A stretch of 64,000 nucleotides of DNA from an uncultured Verrucomicrobiota bacterium (GTDB taxonomy: Bacteria; Verrucomicrobiota; Kiritimatiellia; PWTM01): positions 97,499 to 161,498 of the forward strand of contig CAZSUU010000005.1 in the NCBI GenBank assembly GCA_964610105.1, in the 5' to 3' direction. The notes beneath the pieces are model-generated. The model did no database searches and was not told the origin of the DNA. It worked only from the letters and a program-made list of their open reading frames with translations. Within the stretch, counting starts at the first letter, position 1; each line of letters starts with the position of its first letter. The position numbers and the translations under genes are program-made. Below, piece by piece: positions 55,932 through 62,887 of this stretch.

Positions 55932-56909
55932 TCATTCGCCGGGGAGCCACAGGTAGTACAGGCCCGAGCGCACGCGCAGGGCGCCGGGGAGACGCAGATT
56001 CACCACGCCGGGGGCGCGGGCGGATCCGGCGGGGGAGTAGAGATTGGCGTCCTTGCTGCGCTCGTAGGCATAGGTGACCACGTCGGCCGAGCGGATCCCG
56101 GCCTTCTGTTTCGCCGCATCGATCGTCTCGTCGAGGAAGCCGACGCTGTCGATCAACTTGCCTTCCAGCGCCTGGGCCGCCGTGAAGACACGGCCGTCGG
56201 CCTGCGGGCGCAGGCGTTCGAGCCCGCCCACCTGCGGCCGCTGCGCGAGGATCCAGTTCAGGAAGGCGGCATAGTCGGTCTCGATGAGTCCCTGGAAGAC
56301 CCTGCGTTCCTCGTCGGTCATCCGGCGGAACAGGCTCCCGATGTCCTTCATGCTGCCCGACTTGATGACGTCCTGCTCATAGCCCACCTTGTCCGCGAGC
56401 CGGTGCAGCTTGGGCAGGATCGCAATGACGCCGATGCTCCCGACGATCGCCGAGGGCTGGGCGTCGATCCGGTCGCAGGCGGAGGCGAGGTAGTAGGCGC
56501 CGGAACAGCCGAGACCGGTGATGTTCGCGAAGACCGGCCGGCCCGTCCGCCTCCTGAACTCCGCCACCTCGCGCGCGATCCGTTCGCTCGCGCCCACCGT
56601 GCCGCCGGGCGAGTCGATGCGCAACACGACGGCGCGGACGGAGGCGTCCCGCTCGGCCTTCTTCAGCACGGCGCGCAGGTAGTGGGGCGAACAGGCGAAC
56701 CCGCCGAAGAGTCCGCCATCGTCCCCTTCGGCGATCTCGCCGCTGATGTCCACGAGCAGCACCTTGTCGGCGAACCACCCCCCGGCCTTCTCCACCGTCA
56801 CCTCCTCCAGCTCGCGCGTGCCCAGCGAGCCGAGGTCCACCATGAGGCAGCCCGACACCGCCGCGGCCAGCGCCCCGGCCACGCCGACGACCCACGCCTG
56901 TCGTTTCAT
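55932..56909 (-). CDS. sppA: Signal peptide peptidase SppA (S49), lipoprotein
   Basis: Lipobox 'AVSGC', 'LRIDSPGG', 'GCSGAYYLAS', 'GSIGVI', 'KSG.MKD', 'ADGRVFT'. Confidence 0.9.
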   Translation of the reverse strand: MKRQAWVVGVAGALAAAVSGCLMVDLGSLGTRELEEVTVEKAGGWFADKVLLVDISGEIAEGDDGGLFGGFACSPHYLRAVLKKAERDASVRAVVLRIDSPGGTVGASERIAREVAEFRRRTGRPVFANITGLGCSGAYYLASACDRIDAQPSAIVGSIGVIAILPKLHRLADKVGYEQDVIKSGSMKDIGSLFRRMTDEERRVFQGLIETDYAAFLNWILAQRPQVGGLERLRPQADGRVFTAAQALEGKLIDSVGFLDETIDAAKQKAGIRSADVVTYAYERSKDANLYSPAGSARAPGVVNLRLPGALRVRSGLYYLWLPGE

Positions 56910-57310
56910 CCCGTTCTCCTTCCCGCGGCGGCGATCCGGAGCCCGGCGGCCCTGACCGTTCAACGCCTCCGCTCCAATCCGTCCGTTCCTCCGCGCGGCG
57001 GCGCCGCCTTCAGAGATGGTCCCGCCCCCTTTTACCACGGAGAAGCCCCACGGGAAACCCCGCGCATCGGCGTATCATCTCCCGCGCGACCCTGTAAGGT
57101 CACGGACGCCCGCTTGCGACTGCAGAAACCGCTTCACCCAGCGCGCGCAGGGCGGTCCATGCGTCGAATCCGGGCCGCCAGCCACGCTGCAAACGCATGC
57201 AAGTCCATTTCCTCGGACCTACTCACCCTCCCGTACCTGGTTGGCGGATAGAAGACGTGCACGTTCACAGCGACGGGGCCTCCGTAGCGTCGTGCGCGGA
57301 GGACAAAGCG

Positions 57311-57384
57311 GTTCGCGTTCACGTGCACGAGGAAACGATGTTCGTGAAGGGAGTATCGTGTACGGGTACGTGAACGGGAACGGG
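57311..57384. repeat. Inverted pair of hexamer arrays (GTTCAC/GTGAAC family) with no gene between
   Basis: Left GTTCGCGTTCACGTGCACG; right CGTGTACGGGTACGTGAACGGGAACGGG, whose reverse complement matches the left arm. Confidence 0.6.
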
Positions 57385-57432
57385 AAATCGGAAGGCCAAC
57401 AACATAGGGATTCGTTCCGACTCCGAGTCGGC

Positions 57433-57680
57433 GAGTAGAACAGCTCGATCCCGCTGTAGCTGATGCGCAGCGTCGCCGCGCCCCAGCCGAGTTCCTCCTT
57501 GCAGTACAGCCGGTACTCGCGCACGTCCTCCTCGCTGATGTCCTCCACCGTCGTGCAGGTGAAGTTCTGCAACGGCCGCATCGCCCGCAGGTACGACTGC
57601 GCACTGCGTTTCTGACGGTTCTTCCGACTCAGGTCTGCTGCAAACCGCTCGTAGATGCCGTCGTTCATCCTGCTCCTCAT
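57433..57680 (-). pseudogene. Truncated tyrosine recombinase (N-terminal SAM-like domain only; type usually paired with IS91-like transposases)
   Basis: 'ERFAADL...RSAQSYLRAMR......EDISEEDVREY..Y...E..W..ATLRISYSGIELFY'; homology stops near 57433 with no catalytic RHRY domain. Confidence 0.75.
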
Positions 57681-57784: not shown

Positions 57785-57850
57785 ACCACCGGCTGCACCG
57801 TATTCCTCACCCGCAGCGGGTCCGGAATCCGGTGAGGCGTAATGTTCGGC
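57785..57850 (+). other. Degenerate attC-like site preceding first cassette
   Basis: Imperfect hairpin CACCGTATTCC...GGAATCCGGTG ending in R' GTTCGGC (57844-57850); R'' not intact. Confidence 0.4.
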
Positions 57851-57859
57851 AATAGGAGC

Positions 57860-58963
57860 ATGGCCATGACAAGGTTCATGTGCATGGCGTTGATGGTTGC
57901 GTTGACCGTCATTTCCGCTCCCGAGAGAGCGGTGGCGGTGAACGTGACCGACTTGACCTTTGTGTACGGAATCTATGGCGGCTGGTCCTACTATCACGGC
58001 ACCGTGGCGGTTAATGGCGGGTCAGCCGGAGAATGGACGGCTCGCGTCGATGGCAGACCGGCGTTGGGGTATTTCTTCAACCCCTTGAATTCAAGCATGA
58101 CGGGAGGATCGGTCACCAACCTCGGCAGCCTGGCGGGAGGCTACAAAGCCGCATGGCTGATCGACAATTTCGCGCTTGGGCTCGGAAACGAGGGCACACC
58201 AGCGGGCTGGGCTGGAGATCCCGTCAGCAGCGAGAACAAGCGGGCGGCTCTGGCCCTCGCGGTATTCGAGGTGGGCATGTCGCCCCCCGGCGACCCGCTT
58301 GATTTGGATGCCGGACACTTCAAGTTGTTCTTCACAGACGCTGTGCTTGTCAGCTTCGGCCAGGCCTATCTCGATGCGCTCGCGTCCGCGTCGCCAGACG
58401 AGTCGGCGTTGGAGGCCAAGTATGATGTTCTCATCGGCAACCAGTGGAATGGAAACGCGTATGCAACCTGGGTGGCCCTCGTGGAGCAACCGGTGCTGAA
58501 CCGAATTGATGTCGCCCCGTCGAACGCCACGCTTCACGTGGGGGAACAGCGCATCTTCGCCGCTGCCGGCACCGATCAATTCGGTTATCCCATGGCCTTC
58601 ACGCCGATCTGGTCAGCATCAGGCGGACCCATTGATGGCACGGGCTACTACATGCCGACGAACTCCGGCGTTTTTGAGCTCATCGCCCAATCCGCGGGCT
58701 CCCCGGTCCGGGGCACCAGCGTCGTAACGGCTACCGCCATTCCCATCACCGGCCTGACGCGCGGTCCCCCATTCGCTCTGACCTTCCCGAGTTACACGAC
58801 GACCCTGTACAGGCTTCAGCACAAGTCGAACTTGATGACGGGAGACTGGACCGACCTGCCTGGCGATGTGCGGGGTGTGGGTGGCCCCATGATGCTGACC
58901 GACACCAACGACGTCCTGGAGTCGATCCGCTTCTACCGACTGCTCTACTCTGTTGCGCCATGA
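57860..58963 (+). CDS. Cassette-borne secreted protein with Ig-like and C-terminal FYR-type domain
   Basis: RBS AGGAG, signal peptide, 'IDVAPSNATLHVGEQRIFAAAGTDQFG', C-terminus 'YRLQHKSNLMTGDW...IRFYRL'; AT-richer; followed by attC. Confidence 0.78.
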   Translation: MAMTRFMCMALMVALTVISAPERAVAVNVTDLTFVYGIYGGWSYYHGTVAVNGGSAGEWTARVDGRPALGYFFNPLNSSMTGGSVTNLGSLAGGYKAAWLIDNFALGLGNEGTPAGWAGDPVSSENKRAALALAVFEVGMSPPGDPLDLDAGHFKLFFTDAVLVSFGQAYLDALASASPDESALEAKYDVLIGNQWNGNAYATWVALVEQPVLNRIDVAPSNATLHVGEQRIFAAAGTDQFGYPMAFTPIWSASGGPIDGTGYYMPTNSGVFELIAQSAGSPVRGTSVVTATAIPITGLTRGPPFALTFPSYTTTLYRLQHKSNLMTGDWTDLPGDVRGVGGPMMLTDTNDVLESIRFYRLLYSVAP

Positions 58964-58977
58964 CGATCACGGAGATC

Positions 58978-59037
58978 GCCGAACCCGCAAACGCGGCCCA
59001 CCCCGCTTCGCTCCGAGGCGGGTGCGCGGCGTTGGGC
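58978..59037 (+). other. attC site
   Basis: R'' GCCGAAC and R' GTTGGGC bracket an imperfect palindrome, 15 nt after the cassette stop. Confidence 0.75.
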
Positions 59038-59272
59038 CACTTGAAAGCGGATACCGATGTCAGAGAAGCGCAGGAGACACGGACACGCGGGCGCGGCGGA
59101 GCATGCTCTCCTGGCTCACCGCCAGCGGGTTGGCACGAAACGGGCCGGGGCGCTCTCCACGGCCCCATTCACCTCCCGGACTGCGCCGAACGGCTTCGCT
59201 GGGTTGCCTGTCCCGCCATAGCTCCTGTGCCGCGATAGCTCCGCAGGGGCGACGGCGGATGCCATCTCGCCT

Positions 59273-59459
59273 CGCCCGGTCGGCCTTCCATGGGGTTCTT
59301 GTTCATCCGCTCGCGGCTCTTGCCTAGTCTTCCTCCAGCCGGACGGTGGCCCGCCCGACCTTGACTTCGGCGGGTGCTTGCCATGATGCTCTCGCTTCAT
59401 GTTCGACTCTCGCACTGGGGACTTGAAGCCCATCAGGACTGCGGCCATGCTGGGCGCAC
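59273..59459 (-). mobile_element. Group IIC-type intron 5' fragment inserted in attC (copy A)
   Basis: Minus strand begins GTGCGCCCAGCATGG at 59459 immediately after attC bottom-strand ...GT; no domain V or RT downstream. Confidence 0.8.
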
Positions 59460-59515
59460 ACCACGGCGTGCATGGTAGGCTCGCCAGCTCGCCACCATGA
59501 CGCCGACGTTCGGTG
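59460..59515 (+). other. attC site split at R'' by intron copy A
   Basis: (A)AC-CACGGCGT-GCATGGT...ACCATG-ACGCCGAC-GTTCGGT. Confidence 0.8.
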
Positions 59516-59558
59516 AGTAGACAAGGCAGAGATGCAATAGTAGTCTATGGATATCCTC

Positions 59559-59768
59559 ATGAACACGTATACAGCAGTAACAAAACGAGATGGTGATTGG
59601 TGGATCGGCTGGATCGAGGAAGTACCGGGCGTAAACTGCCAGGAGCGGACGCGTGAAGAACTCCTTCAGAGCCTAAGGATCACCCTGAAGGAAGCTCTGG
59701 ACTTCAACCGCCACGAAGCCATCGAAGCTGCCTCTGCCGATTTCTCAGAAGAACCACTCACGGTATGA
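59559..59768 (+). CDS. hicB: HicB-family antitoxin
   Basis: 'YTAVTKRDGDWWIGWIEEVPGVNCQERTREELL.SL...LKEAL'. Confidence 0.88.
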   Translation: MNTYTAVTKRDGDWWIGWIEEVPGVNCQERTREELLQSLRITLKEALDFNRHEAIEAASADFSEEPLTV

Positions 59769-59953
59769 AGCGGCAGCAACTGCTCAAGCATCTCCGAGAG
59801 CACGGATGCGTGTTTGTGCGAGAGGGCGGCAGCCATTCATGGTGGGCAAATCCCCAGCAGAATAGGCGTTCATCAATCCCTCGCCACACCGAGATCAGGG
59901 ATCTGCTGGCAAGGAAGATCTGCAAAGATCTCGGCATCCCATTTGTGAAATAA
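59765..59953 (+). CDS. hicA: HicA-family toxin
   Basis: 'MKRQQLLKHL..HGC...REGGSHSWW.NP.....S.IPRH.EI...LARKICK.L.IP'; ATGA overlap with hicB. Confidence 0.9.
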   Translation: MKRQQLLKHLREHGCVFVREGGSHSWWANPQQNRRSSIPRHTEIRDLLARKICKDLGIPFVK

Positions 59954-59954
59954 T

Positions 59955-60046
59955 CACCAACCATCGCCTCCAGTTCACGGCTTGTCCGGCACGCCTTTTG
60001 CGGAGCAGAAGTCGCGTTAGCCTGTGCCGATGCTGAGGCGTGACGT
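59955..60046 (+). other. attC site (R' GT|TGGCG split by mini-intron)
   Basis: R'' CACCAAC, arms CATCGCCTC...GAGGCGTGAC, R' GT at 60045-60046 completed by TGGCG at 60286-60290. Confidence 0.8.
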
Positions 60047-60285
60047 GTGTGCCGGGCATGACTGATGACTGAGAGGGGAGAGACCTCCGTCCAGGTAGGC
60101 GCGCAGCCGAAGAACTAGTGGAAACACAAGGGCTGCCGTCGCGAGGCGGGGTCTGAAGGAAGTGCAACCCCAAACGGGGGCTTCCCAAGTTGCAGGAGGT
60201 TTGCCAACGGAATCGCCGGGTACGTGATCCGTATGCCCGGGTGGTGTGGAAGAAGCGGCCTCGCGAGGCGCCCCCTTATCCCGAT
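60047..60285 (+). mobile_element. ORF-less 239-nt group IIC-type mini-intron
   Basis: 5' GTGTGCCGGGCATG; domain V GAATCGCCGGGTACGTGATCCGTATGCCCGGGTGGTG (60210-60246) with CGC triad; domain VI ending CCTTATCCCGAT. Confidence 0.85.
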
Positions 60286-60349
60286 TGGCGGAGAAGAAAA
60301 GAGAACTGCGGTCGATCAGGGTCGGGGTCGGGGTCGAAAAGGAGTCGGC

Positions 60350-60510
60350 ATGGCCTTCGGACACGAGAAGCTGGACGTCTATCGCGCCGCCATCGAGTAC
60401 GTCGGCTGGGCGTATCGGTTCTGCGAGGCGTTGGCCACAGAGGAAAACGAGAAGGCCAAGGCCCTGCCGGACCGGATCGTGGCGATGCTTACAGAGCTCG
60501 GGCACCGGCT
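60350..60510 (+). pseudogene. Four-helix-bundle gene cassette with internal deletion, 3' end fused to intron fragment
   Basis: 'MAFGHEKLDVYRAAIEYVGWAYRFCEAL|ATEENEKAKALPDRIVAMLTELG'; preceded by GGGGTC hexamers and RBS AAGGAG. Confidence 0.78.
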
Positions 60511-60530
60511 GTCGCAGGCGCGATTTCCTC

Positions 60531-60717
60531 CGCCCGGTCGGCCTTCTATGGGGTTTTTGTTCATCCGCTCGCGGCTCTTGCCGAGTCTTCCTCCAGCCGG
60601 ACGGTTGCCCGCCCGACCTTGACTTCGGCGGGTGCTTGCCATGATGCTCTCGCTTCATGTTCGACTCTCGCACTGGGGACTTGAACCCCATCAGGACTGC
60701 GCCCATGCGGGGCGCAG
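60531..60717 (-). mobile_element. Group IIC-type intron 5' fragment inserted in attC (copy B, about 96% identical to copy A)
   Basis: 8 mismatches over 187 nt vs 59273-59459; starts CTGCG (G1 mutated) after bottom-strand TTGT. Confidence 0.8.
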
Positions 60718-60775
60718 ACAACAGCTCGGACGTTATCGTCGCGAAGCGACCCGAAACGTCAAGGTGACGTTCGGC
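60718..60775 (+). other. attC site split at R'' by intron copy B
   Basis: (A)ACAACAGCTC-GGACGTT...AAACGTC-AAGGTGAC-GTTCGGC. Confidence 0.75.
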
Positions 60776-60785
60776 CGGAGAATGC

Positions 60786-61267
60786 ATGAATACGGTTGCG
60801 GATAGTGGTACACGTCGCAAGTACCTTGTGTACCTCGCCGGATTCGCGGATGAACTTCGCGGAGCCGAGGTGGTACTGAATGATGACATTGAGCGTCTCA
60901 ATCGAGAGTTGGACGGATTCATCCAGCAACCCAAGGCCAACGAATGTGAACTCCCTCTGATCAAAGCCCTTGAAGACTCCCGCATGACGACAATCGCAAC
61001 GGCCCCAAGTACAACGTCATAAGGCCGTTCTACGCAAAGACACCGTCCCAGATGGGTGAGGATTTCGTTGGGTTCACCTTTGGCCAGTCTAAGCCGGATT
61101 CAGACGGTTTCGTGAGGCTCCGCTGCATCGTTCCCGTGAAGCCATTGCGGGGTTGTGCGGGGCAGCCAGAAGAACTCCGGGCGAAAACCGAAGGGTGTGT
61201 GTCCGTCTCGACGAGAACGGCAAGGTTCGGGGATTCGAAACAGAAGAACCCAATCGGGTCCCCGTGA
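60786..61267 (+). pseudogene. AT-richer cassette ORF, apparently frameshifted
   Basis: ORF 60786-61022 and a second frame open from about 60975 to 61267 overlap; starts 11 nt after attC. Confidence 0.4.
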
Positions 61268-61289
61268 CTGACTGAGGGGTACTCAGCCA

Positions 61290-61390
61290 GCCCCGGGTCC
61301 CCCGCCACCCTCCTTCGGCTACTCGTTTGCGATCCTGATCCTCCGGGAGAAGACGTGAACTCCATTAGTTCTTGGACGTGCTGGGCGTAC
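61290..61390 (-). mobile_element. Third group IIC-type intron 5' remnant (different lineage)
   Basis: Bottom-strand TTGT|GTACGCCCAGCA..GAACTAATGGAG...TAGCCGAAGG. Confidence 0.6.
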
Positions 61391-61443
61391 ACAATGAAAG
61401 GTCCGCACGTCGGCGCCGCCCGACGTGCAGCCTTGGGTTGAGC
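61391..61443 (+). other. attC-like site split at R''
   Basis: (A)ACAATGAAAGG..GCACGTCGG-cgccgc-CCGACGTGC..CCTT..GTTGAGC. Confidence 0.6.
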
Positions 61444-61723
61444 ACGCCGCGGGGCCATGGATTCTGCACGGCCGGCGGGTTCAGCGCGGGAGGGCCGTGA
61501 GCGGGAGCGCGGAACGGGCGGGGCGAGCGCGGGAGACGGGAACTGCTTCCATCGCACGGTGTGCAACCGCCGGGCGCGATGCGGATGGGGCCGGACGGGT
61601 TGCGCGTGATCCCGGCCCATCGGCGGCGGTGCCGCCGCGGGGGGGGGAAGAGAGGACCGTCGTACGTTCCTTGTCTTCCTAGGTGGCCTGGAATCTGCTT
61701 CTCTGCAGGTCGGGTGAGACGCC

Positions 61724-62887
61724 ATGAATAGACGCCTGAAACGGATGAAGCGGCTGACGGCGGGGCTGGCATGGGCGGCGGGCGCGGCCTGCGGCGCCGA
61801 GATACCGTGCGCGATCTTCCCGTCGAACAGTATCTGGAACATGCGCGTGGACGTCCTGCCGGTCCATCCGGCCTCCGCGGCCTTCATCGCGTCCATCGGC
61901 TCGAACACCGGCTTCCATGCCGACTTCGGCGCCGGCCTGTGGGAAGGGGGGCCGATCGGCATCCCGTTCGTCGTGGTCCCGAGCCATCAGCCGAAGGTGG
62001 AGGTGGACTTTGAATACGCGAACGAGAGCGATCCCGGCCCCTACCCCATCCCGCCGGACCCGCCGATCGAGGGGGGACCGGCCTCCACCGGCGACCGCCA
62101 CATCCTGATGGTCGACGCCCAGGGTGGCATGCTCTACGAGCTGTACAGCGCCTACACCAATGCCGACGGTTCGTGGCGCGCGGGATCGGGGGCGATCTTC
62201 GATCTCGCGTCGCACGCGCTTCGCTCCAACGGCTGGACGTCCGCCGATGCCGCCGGCCTCCCGATCCTGCCCGGGTTGGTCCGATACGAGGAGGTCGCCG
62301 CCGGCGAGATCCGGCATGCGATCCGCTTCACCGTCTCGCGGACGCGCCGCGCCTACGTATGGCCCGCCCGCCACTACGCGTCGAGCTACACGCAGACCAA
62401 CTACCCCCCGATGGGCCAGCGCTTCCGGCTCAGGAGGGATTTCGACATCAGCGGTTTCTCCAACGACGTGAAGGTGATTCTGCGCGCGATGAAGACCTAC
62501 GGCATCATCCTCGCCGACAACGGCAGCAACTGGTACCTCTCCGGCGCCCCCGACGAGCGGTGGAACAACGACCACCTGCAGCAGATGAAGAACGTCCGCG
62601 GCCGCGACATGGAGGCGGTGGACGCGTGCGTGCTGCAGATCCATCCCGATTCCGGCGAAGCCCGCAGTCCGATCCCCGGCATCCGCCATCTCCGCATTTC
62701 CGGCGCCCAGGCCAGCCTGGGGCTCGGCAATCTGCTCTCCAACGTGGGCTACCGCGTCGAGGCAGGGACCGGCCTCGCCGCCGGCGCCTGGCAGGAGGTC
62801 GGCCGCTTCACCGGCGCCGCCGACCAGCGCGAGTGGACCGGAGCCGTCGATGGCGCCCGGCGGTTCTACCGGCTGGCGGTCGAATGA
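61724..62887 (+). CDS. Secreted protein with C-terminal FYR-type domain
   Basis: Signal peptide; 'WN..VD.LPVHP.S', 'GIPF.VV', 'YPIP....IEGG', 'GDRH', 'AAGLPI..GL', 'YGIILADNG'; C-terminus 'YRVEAGTGLAAGAW...RRFYRL'. Confidence 0.8.
   Translation: MNRRLKRMKRLTAGLAWAAGAACGAEIPCAIFPSNSIWNMRVDVLPVHPASAAFIASIGSNTGFHADFGAGLWEGGPIGIPFVVVPSHQPKVEVDFEYANESDPGPYPIPPDPPIEGGPASTGDRHILMVDAQGGMLYELYSAYTNADGSWRAGSGAIFDLASHALRSNGWTSADAAGLPILPGLVRYEEVAAGEIRHAIRFTVSRTRRAYVWPARHYASSYTQTNYPPMGQRFRLRRDFDISGFSNDVKVILRAMKTYGIILADNGSNWYLSGAPDERWNNDHLQQMKNVRGRDMEAVDACVLQIHPDSGEARSPIPGIRHLRISGAQASLGLGNLLSNVGYRVEAGTGLAAGAWQEVGRFTGAADQREWTGAVDGARRFYRLAVE

Follow-up and report, generated by a model that had tools for sequence, protein, structure and literature searches.

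A probable decayed integron cassette array interrupted by group IIC intron relics in a Verrucomicrobiota genome

A low-GC island with six attC-type sites

In a 64,000-nt stretch of contig C5 from an uncultured Verrucomicrobiota bacterium (C5:97499-161498; the whole stretch is hereafter called the window), there is one low-GC island at ~57.15-61.45 kb, which contains a putative integron cassette array without an integrase, a type of locus known as a CALIN (cluster of attC sites lacking integron-integrase). The assembly comprises 5.6 Mb in 93 contigs, designated C1, C2, and so on, while loci of the integron integrase IntI are designated L001, L012, L032, etc., of which L001 lies in this genome and the rest come from other bacteria. 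The GC content drops to 0.55-0.63 at ~57.15-61.4 kb, compared with ~0.70 in the flanks, in agreement with the AT-richer cassettes described in an earlier reading made from the sequence alone. The island is bounded on the left by sppA (55932-57038, minus strand, Peptidase_S49) and on the right by a GC-rich gene for a secreted protein (61724-62887). It contains six attC-type sites (0 and A-E), which have the plus strand as top strand throughout and bound five cassette-length units on the plus strand. Four of these sites are split at GT↓T of an R box (arrows mark junctions) by relics of group IIC introns belonging to three lineages (lin1, lin2, and lin3). We consider it probable that the island is a decayed cassette array which introns have hit and which is most likely frozen.

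Imperfect palindromes ending in GTT-type boxes lie at or next to every position where the sequence-only reading had placed an attC site. Its count of five convincing sites was overstated, as three are strong, one is good after re-delimiting, and one is weak. The three strong sites, B, D, and E, are strongly supported by intron targeting and paralogs. Specifically, site B (59460-59514, plus strand) is an attC site without the first 5 nt of R'', with R' GTTCGGT (59508-59514) and an L box, GGCGT[G]CATGGT/ACCATGACGCC, that has one extrahelical base. Site D (60718-60775, plus strand) likewise lacks the first 5 nt of R'' and has R' GTTCGGC (60769-60775) and one extrahelical base in its L box, CTC[G]GACGTT/AACGTCAAG. 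Both are 5' exons of lin1 relics, ending in ...GTGGT↓ at site B (relic lin1a) and ...GTTGT↓ at site D (relic lin1b), and both fold with a z-score of -2.3. Site E (61248-61252 and 61391-61443, plus strand) has an R'' split by lin3 (ACCCA/AC), which upon joining becomes ACCCA↓AC, a perfect RYYYAAC box. Its R' is GTTGAGC (61437-61443); ACCCAAC is complementary to this box at 5/7 positions and to the overlapping CTTGGGT (61432-61438) at 6/7. Site E folds with a z-score of -3.2 (-3.3 with the flanks joined), its L box has an extrahelical base, and it has an uninterrupted paralog at C9:550-608 (...TTGT↓TGCGC) and a decayed paralog on C17.

The remaining three sites are less complete or less distinct. 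Site C (59955-60046 and 60286-60290, plus strand) comprises R'' CACCAAC, a TGAC spacer, an L box, CGCCTC[C]AG/CTGAGGCG, and an R' of which the first 2 nt (GT) are at 60045-60046, while TGGCG completes the box beyond lin2. When the two parts are joined, CACCAAC and GTTGGCG are complementary at 6/7 positions, giving a 6-bp R box and an L box with an extrahelical G (z = -1.1). The GTTAGCC at 60015-60021, which had been taken for R' of this site, lies inside the loop, and the true R' is GT↓TGGCG; site C is good once re-delimited in this way. Site A (58978-59037, plus strand; R'' GCCGAAC, R' GTTGGGC at 59031-59037) is a possible but weak attC site, with a fold z-score of -0.7 and an R-box-enforced fold within 1-1.3 kcal/mol of the minimum free energy. 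Site 0 (57796-57850, plus strand) is a 5'-truncated attC-type hairpin (57796-57834; z = -2.7) with R' GTTCGGC (57844-57850) and without R'' and outer stem, which we take to be missing because homology to its paralogs ends at the left edge of the hairpin. The paralogs, C2:147474 and C22:33565, display a five-pair compensatory swap (ATTCC/GGAAT versus ACGGC/GCCGT).

Complementary R'' and R' boxes are thus present at A and, upon joining, at C and E; they are present in part at B and D, which retain the last 2 nt of R'', and at site 0, which retains R' only. Strand exchange takes place at R', and this box is intact at every site except C. One extrahelical base on the minus-strand 3' arm is seen in four sites, namely a C in B and D and a G in C and E; an unpaired C is also found at the attC site of a control plasmid, pLNU-11, and at several sites elsewhere in the genome. 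A single unpaired base on the 3' arm of each stem corresponds to the geometry of an attC bottom strand, in which extrahelical bases on the L'' arm identify the strand that recombines.

Relics of group IIC introns within the sites

Group IIC-attC introns insert into the bottom strand of attC at R'', within TTGT/T, in the orientation opposite to cassette transcription (PMC7923331; PMC3001079). The relics in the array are two 5' stubs (lin1a and lin1b) and two mini-introns with both ends (lin2 and lin3). The stub lin1a (59144-59459, minus strand) is the 5' part of a group IIC-attC intron; it starts with GTGCGCCCAGCATGG, contains an internal insertion of ~49 nt, and is devoid of the intron-encoded protein (IEP), domains 5 and 6 (D5/D6), and the 3' end. 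It scores 34.4 bits on RF02001, above the gathering score of 32, and its copies on C78, C88, and C24 (90-93 bits) share 95-97% identity with it. The stub lin1b (60531-60717, minus strand; 187 nt) is of the same lineage and scores 25.4 bits on RF02001. Intron 3' ends were sought beside both stubs and none was found. The array also contains a 212-nt direct repeat, 59273-59484 and 60531-60742, with 92% identity between its copies.

Both mini-introns end in CCCGAT. The 138-nt lin3 (61253-61390, minus strand; 5' GTACGCCCAGCACG..., 3' ...ACCCGAT) is a group IIC-attC intron whose start matches that of the pLNU-11 control intron and whose minus-strand 3' end, ...GGGGACCCGAT, reaches 61253 and is followed by TGGGT. 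Its 5' 79 nt are 88.6% identical to C10:1434-1512, while its 3' part resembles C4:218553-218620 (90% identity) and the 3' end of the C78 intron (74%). The 239-nt lin2 (60047-60285, plus strand; 5' GTGTGCCGGG..., 3' ...GGGTGGTGTGG...CCCGAT) is a group IIC intron whose 5' 144 nt are 91.5% identical to C41:5839-5968; the C41 copy scores 73.5 bits on RF02001, and the window copy gives a partial match of 27.7 bits (60135-60206, plus strand). Each of these two lineages has one further copy in the genome (C41:5965 for lin2; C10:1512 for lin3). The 3' end of the C41 copy was not found with a 3'-end motif, which is too loose in a GC-rich genome.

There are strong RF02001 matches elsewhere in the genome, with 73-93 bits on near-identical copies (C78, C24, C88, and C41). 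RF00029, the model of D5/D6, has no match in the window, and the 3' modules of lin2 and lin3 were recognised solely through homology and the ...CCCGAT end. No intact group II reverse transcriptase was detected in the genome, the best TIGR04416 match scoring 112 bits against a cut-off of 300. Since the introns in the window are without IEP and recognisable D5/D6, we regard them as relics.

The intact intron of plasmid pLNU-11 (NZ_KX863568) served as control, with scores of 135 bits (RF02001) and 50 bits (RF00029) and an IEP that is 59% identical to the IEP fragment on C78. The 5' junction of the control reads TTCTAAC-GACAAA-GCTCACCGG...CCGGTG[C]AGC-GCC-TTGT↓intron (the exon part after [C] being AGCGCCTTGT), and its 3' junction reads ...CCCGAT↓TAAGC, directly followed by the stop codon of an antisense cassette open reading frame (ORF). 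In the lin1 and lin3 relics, both the 5' sequence and the type of 5' exon agree with the control. Furthermore, the conserved GAACAAGAAC loop of lin1 and the control could pair through ACAA with the TTGT end of the exon.

Three of the four insertions follow the classical rule of bottom-strand insertion into R'' at TTGT↓T, with minus-strand exons ending in TGGT↓ (lin1a), TTGT↓ (lin1b), and TTGT↓ (lin3). The lin2 insertion departs from this rule: it follows CGT↓ in R' on the top strand and has the orientation of the cassettes. The 3' exons of the introns restore perfect or near-perfect R boxes, ACCCA↓AC at site E and GT↓TGGCG at site C. Alignment of six lin1 copies reveals a common 5' end, ...TTGT↓GTGCGCCCAGCATGGGCGCAGTCC, in front of which stands an imperfect palindrome that differs from copy to copy and begins like RYYYAAC. 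Among the intron 5' exons in the genome, 7 or 8 of 10 have YYNAAC at the stem base, compared with 9.7% of random 95-nt windows (binomial P ~1e-5).

These junctions also account for the left-hand boxes ACACCAC, AGACAAC, and ACACAAT, which had been proposed as RYYYAAC boxes at 59460, 60718, and 61391, respectively. The boxes are chimeric: only the last AC belongs to attC, and the bases to the left are the reverse complement of the 5' end of a group II intron. The intron relics in four sites were absent from the sequence-only reading, as were the lost R'' halves of B and D and a truncated recombinase gene at 57405-57680 described below.

Covariance models and generic stem-loops

A CALIN is called from at least two attC sites <4 kb apart by an attC covariance model (IntegronFinder, E < 1). 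The models used here are surrogates built for this analysis, not IntegronFinder's own. The seeds of R1, which models the interrupted form, and of R2, the intact-site model, were sites outside the window plus the pLNU-11 site; their variable loops were trimmed to yield mini-sites of equal length that were aligned by MAFFT, which had misaligned the boxes of full-length sites. R3 was trained on 45 of R2's external matches only. On 846 kb flanking 70 IntI genes of other bacteria, R2 gave 48 matches with E <= 1, which cluster in arrays beside intI on a single strand per array (14 in L035 and 15 in L032); R2 is a valid, if narrow, attC detector. The R2 matches in L032, L038, L051, and L083 (Acidobacteriota and others) lie downstream of intI with cassettes co-oriented with it, while L035 and others have the classical divergent arrangement of intI and array. 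Strict and relaxed scans with an attC grammar combined with folding were discarded: they missed interrupted sites, returned many GC-rich false matches, and found almost nothing at the Verrucomicrobia IntI locus L012.

In the genome to which the window belongs, R3 finds 17 sites on at least 12 contigs, including C78:3657 (39 bits), which was never in training, and the C22 paralog of site 0 (23.5 bits). Over the whole window, R1 places B first (16.1 bits) and D third (11.6 bits, E = 1.2), while R3 places C first (13.5 bits), B third (E = 0.85), and A tenth, with whole-window E-values of 0.35-7.9. In a local search of 57-62 kb, the top five R3 matches are C (E = 0.027), B (0.067), A on both strands (0.25 and 0.58), and site 0 (0.62), and four of these five (C, B, one A match, and site 0) use the minus strand as bottom strand. 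The window copy of site 0 scores 7.8 bits with R3, site A scores 9.5 bits with R3 and 11.1 bits with R2, and the interrupted sites score ~8 bits with R2, as expected for interrupted sites.

Several observations weigh against an attC array. None of the sites is significant over the whole window with any of the surrogates, the best E-values being 0.083 (B, R1) and 0.35 (C, R3), and their scores of 8-16 bits are well under the 16-50 bits of intact attC. D and E go undetected by R3, and E by all three models. Site A and un-joined site C fold no better than shuffled sequence. The homology of site E to its C9 and C17 paralogs runs ~95 nt beyond R', while a simple cassette boundary predicts otherwise. 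Finally, other AAC...GTT palindromic repeats, such as 61561-61605, occur outside arrays in the genome. The covariance scores, by which the sequence-only reading had proposed to be judged, therefore lend it weak to moderate support with these surrogates; we regard this support as apparently real but modest, as would be expected of broken sites. For site E, the assignment rests on the uninterrupted paralog on C9, the fold, and the intron junctions.

The same observations would suit a different explanation, in which the palindromes are generic stem-loops, terminator- or REP-like (repetitive extragenic palindromic), in a mobile-DNA junkyard and resemble attC by chance, as may happen at high GC content, and in general group IIC introns do target stem-loops (PMC7923331). 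We consider this explanation improbable in view of the following features. Besides the enrichment of YYNAAC, 9 of 10 exons have a stem base whose AAC is paired with the GT of the insertion point. The 3' exons TGGGT and TGGCG fill in RYYYAAC/GTTRRRY boxes, each of them complementary to its counterpart, and the single extra base lies on the arm where attC would have it. Models derived from genomic sites find true arrays beside intI in other phyla, and the reverse-trained R3 puts the window sites at the top locally. Furthermore, the ORFs share one orientation, and their ends precede the sites by 1-15 nt.

In the course of these comparisons, a conserved stretch was observed 3' of site E (61444-61535) and of its paralogs (C9:468-549 and C17:76356-76430). 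This stretch of ~95 nt could be a common next cassette or a common array end.

Cassette contents

All ORFs of the array are on the plus strand. The product of the cassette 1 ORF (57860-58963) is a secreted protein that has a signal peptide and, at its C-terminus, a ...RFYRL tail; the ORF is preceded by an AGGAG ribosome-binding site just past the TTCGGC cassette start, ends 15 nt before site A, and has no match in Pfam or NCBIfam. The protein encoded by the right-hand flanking gene (61724-62887) has a similar C-terminal motif, Y-R-[LV]-[QE]...W...RFYRL. Because this motif is common to a flanking chromosomal protein, the cassette 1 gene looks native to the lineage.

Cassette 3 (59547-59953, plus strand) comprises a hicB-like antitoxin gene (59547 or 59559 to 59768) and hicA (59765-59953), which ends 1 nt before site C. 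The hicBA cassette named in the sequence-only reading is borne out for hicA (HicA_toxin, PF07927, E = 2e-12), while the 73-aa hicB-like ORF has a weak UPF0150-like match (E = 0.016). The two genes overlap by ATGA and have the HicAB arrangement, with a small antitoxin upstream and a stop/start overlap. hicBA is the only intact small cassette of the array. It has no other copy in the genome, and an exact look-up of HicA in public assemblies returned no record.

The other units contain less coding sequence. Cassette 2 consists mostly of the lin1a relic and lacks an ORF. Cassette 4 consists of the lin2 relic (inside site C), a four-helix-bundle mini-gene of 57 aa, and lin1b; the ORF of the mini-gene (60351-60530, plus strand) contains ~57 aa of family sequence, reads into lin1b, and has no Pfam match. 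Of the cassettes, which had been described as short, 59032-59508 and 60286-60769 hold little beyond intron debris and this mini-gene. Cassette 5 contains a 78-aa ORF (60786-61022, plus strand), possibly with a frameshifted continuation at 61052-61267, for which there is no significant family match.

The four-helix-bundle family recurs in the genome. Short-form paralogs of the mini-gene are located at C34:12046-12204, at the C58/C88 junction, and at C24:42795-42878, and the 57-aa 'two-helix' form is a recurrent family rather than a one-off deletion. A full-length relative of 161 aa is a cassette on C41. The four-helix-bundle gene together with its attC (GTCAAAGCTCACCG...GGTGCAGCGCCTTGT↓TGGGG) is present in at least six copies (C41:1000-1493, C43, C24:43943, C70, C16, and C2:195792), and identity among them ends exactly at AA↓C of the bottom-strand R', the expected crossover point. 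The genome contains many further arrays, among which this cassette recurs. We take this recurrent cassette, together with a complete intI, as probable evidence that integron recombination has worked in this genome. Three copies of the 57-aa unit abut lin1 stubs, at ~190, 330, and 345 nt of the intron, which suggests repeated recombination or insertion between four-helix-bundle units and introns.

Integron integrases and a recombinase remnant

The sequence-only reading had found no intI in the window and had called for a search of the genome. A TIGR02249 search detects no integron integrase on contig C5, and it identifies a complete intI at C1:352542-353474 (425 bits versus a cut-off of 265) and intI fragments on C2, C22, C24, and C58. 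The relatives of the C1 IntI are from metagenome-assembled genomes (MAGs), namely a 'PVC group' (Planctomycetes-Verrucomicrobia-Chlamydiae) MAG (77%), a Verrucomicrobiota MAG (85%, partial), and Verrucomicrobia and Kiritimatiellaeota (62%), which fits the PVC-like label previously given to the DNA. The L001 locus (C1:352542-354256) encodes an IntI with an N-terminal extension and a second SAM-like domain, in an open frame of ~540 aa. Contig C1 ends in ...TAACTGTT ~65 nt upstream of the IntI start, with no k=55 overlap to other contigs; such an end would be expected if variation of the first cassette among members of the population made the assembly break at attI.

At the left end of the array, 57405-57680 (minus strand) encodes the N-terminal 92 aa of a tyrosine recombinase, of which only the SAM-like domain is present (Pfam Phage_int_SAM_4, E = 3e-8) and the catalytic domain is absent. 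This remnant has no TIGR02249 match and, by tblastn, no similarity to the C1 IntI. Its closest full-length relatives (~290 aa, 63% identity) are Xer-like and score 163 bits versus the IntI cut-off of 265; several are fused to pieces of IS91 transposases, and a family-level relative adjoins an IS91 transposase. We therefore rejected 57405-57680 as intI, despite its intI-like position, and assign it to the IS91-associated, Xer-like recombinases. In a synteny search of 14 genomes of the family, the recombinase and a flanking 387-aa ORF gave 1 weak match each, and no empty site was found.

Discussion

From the anatomy of the sites, the identities of the introns, the paralogs, and the lack of intI on the contig, we infer past IntI-mediated assembly, an order of events, and present immobility of the array. 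The cassettes would have been brought in, presumably, by an IntI-type integrase acting on folded bottom (minus) strands. Later, group IIC introns of three lineages would have retrohomed into four of the six sites at GT↓T, three into the bottom strand at R'' in antisense, as is classical for IIC-attC introns, and one into the top strand at R' in sense. All four would then have lost the reverse-transcriptase gene and most of the ribozyme through internal and 3' deletions; in the two 5' stubs, this loss would also have taken the outer half of R'' (sites B and D), while mini-introns of 239 and 138 nt would have been left to split C and E. At the left end, an IS91-type element probably caused the damage; site 0, without its R'' side, lies beside the IS91-type recombinase remnant. 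Since R boxes are missing or split at five of the six sites, the cassettes are probably fixed, and the loss of the R'' halves at B and D makes it very probable that the array can no longer move.

A working cassette reservoir, which the C1 IntI reshuffles in trans and in which the relics are tolerated or even useful as sources of outward promoters, is an unlikely alternative to such a frozen array. There is a complete intI in the genome, and five R' boxes are intact. Outward promoters located in domains I-II of IIC-attC introns are known to drive expression of the cassette that follows (PMC3001079), and every stub in the array retains that 5' region directly upstream of a cassette. However, the R box cannot form at B and D, where 5/7 R'' bases are lost; it is split at C (239 nt) and E (138 nt); and site 0 is without R''. 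In addition, a consensus scan for sigma-70-like promoters in 57-62 kb found 0 where 1.3 are expected, although PVC promoters may differ, and the neighbouring cassettes are gutted. It is far-fetched that the island is the remnant of a complete integron with 57405-57680 as leftover intI: although this gene is divergent from the array and directly beside the first site, as intI would be, and has a Phage_int_SAM_4 N-terminal domain that is also found in IntI, it lacks the TIGR02249 match that true intI N-terminal fragments in this genome give with 62 bits over the same model region, it is dissimilar to the C1 IntI, its Xer-like relatives stay under the IntI cut-off with a two-stretch match, and site 0 consists of R' and an entire L hairpin rather than an attI junction.

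Within the reading of the island as a decayed, intron-hit array, a more specific and more tentative proposal is that intron invasion itself froze the array, and that lin2 represents a group IIC lineage that homes into R' on the top strand. By this proposal, the introns would have split the R boxes, and their decay would have deleted or permanently separated the halves, turning mobile cassettes into fixed genes; the lin2 lineage would home in sense at GT↓T, a single base away from where IntI cleaves. If true, this would be a route to a CALIN distinct from integrase loss or IS-mediated rearrangement, and, in contrast to every classical IIC-attC intron, a lin2-type intron would share the transcript of the cassettes and could be spliced from it.

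Neither CALINs nor group IIC-attC introns are new, and integrons have been described beyond Proteobacteria; accordingly, the locus adds an example and not a new category. Surveyed CALINs have five sites on average (Cury et al. 2016, PMC4889954). The locus resembles them in its small cluster of co-oriented and mostly unknown cassettes, in having no intI nearby, in the mobile-element remnants at its edge, and, as for half of them, in a genome that encodes IntI elsewhere (PMC4889954), and the core of the sequence-only reading, a chromosomal attC array without a nearby integrase, stands. Unlike in a typical CALIN, most of its sites are broken by intron relics and have poor covariance scores, and IntegronFinder would probably detect the array only in part.

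The relics resemble the IIC-attC introns S.ma.I2, E.c.I7, and Kl.pn.I1 (PMC3001079) and that of pLNU-11 in their probable ribozyme family (RF02001), in the 5' sequence GT[GA]CGCCCAGCA[TC]GG...GAACAAGAAC, and in the position of TTGT↓ in bottom-strand R'', antisense to the cassettes. The described IIC-attC cases are single introns, mostly in last cassettes, whereas here there are four relics in one array of 3.7 kb. As cited in PMC7923331, a single top-strand group IIC intron is reported, in an Enterobacter cloacae integron. In contrast to that case as cited there, the present genome has two independent insertions of the same lineage, at site C and at C41:5965, both of them relics. Both insertions follow ...CGT↓ in R' and are in sense with the upstream ORF, hinting that insertion into R' on the top strand is a lineage preference rather than an accident. 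The locus is also reminiscent of the CALIN of Halorhodospira halochloris (PMC7923331), which is integrase-less and has fragmented, non-functional group II introns with toxin-antitoxin cassettes nearby, except that the H. halochloris fragments are group IIB, 5'-truncated, and have kept their 3' ends, whereas those described here are group IIC and have kept their 5' ends, two of them with both ends.

The array provides a compact natural record of attC death, with three intron lineages, attack on both strands, and two decay outcomes within 3.7 kb, for which the uninterrupted paralogous sites in the same genome represent the 'before' states. Such arrays would be under-called by covariance-model tools because their R boxes are chimeric with intron ends. 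The top-strand lineage, if real and active somewhere, would constitute a sense-oriented attC intron and bear on the long-standing idea that such introns contribute to cassette formation.

Repeats at the edges of the island

Three further elements lie at the margins. Just upstream of sppA, an element of ~82 bp (57001-57085) has >100 copies in the genome at 75-87% identity and looks like a repeat of the REP or MITE (miniature inverted-repeat transposable element) type. At 57254-57400, facing hexamer arrays encode '...VHVHEE...' and '...VYGYVNGNGKSEG', peptides that four-helix-bundle gene units have as their leader and repetitive tail (cf. '...IQVREEDIVYGYVNENGNEGQ' on C88), and the segment looks like an emptied unit of this kind at the left end of the island. 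Beyond the right end, a 45-nt palindrome (61561-61605; GTGCAACC...GGTTGCGC) is located within a repeat (61548-61680) that has ~10 copies on other contigs (C1, C2, C7, C10, C19, C24, C36, and C37), dispersed outside arrays. The ends of this palindrome resemble attC boxes.

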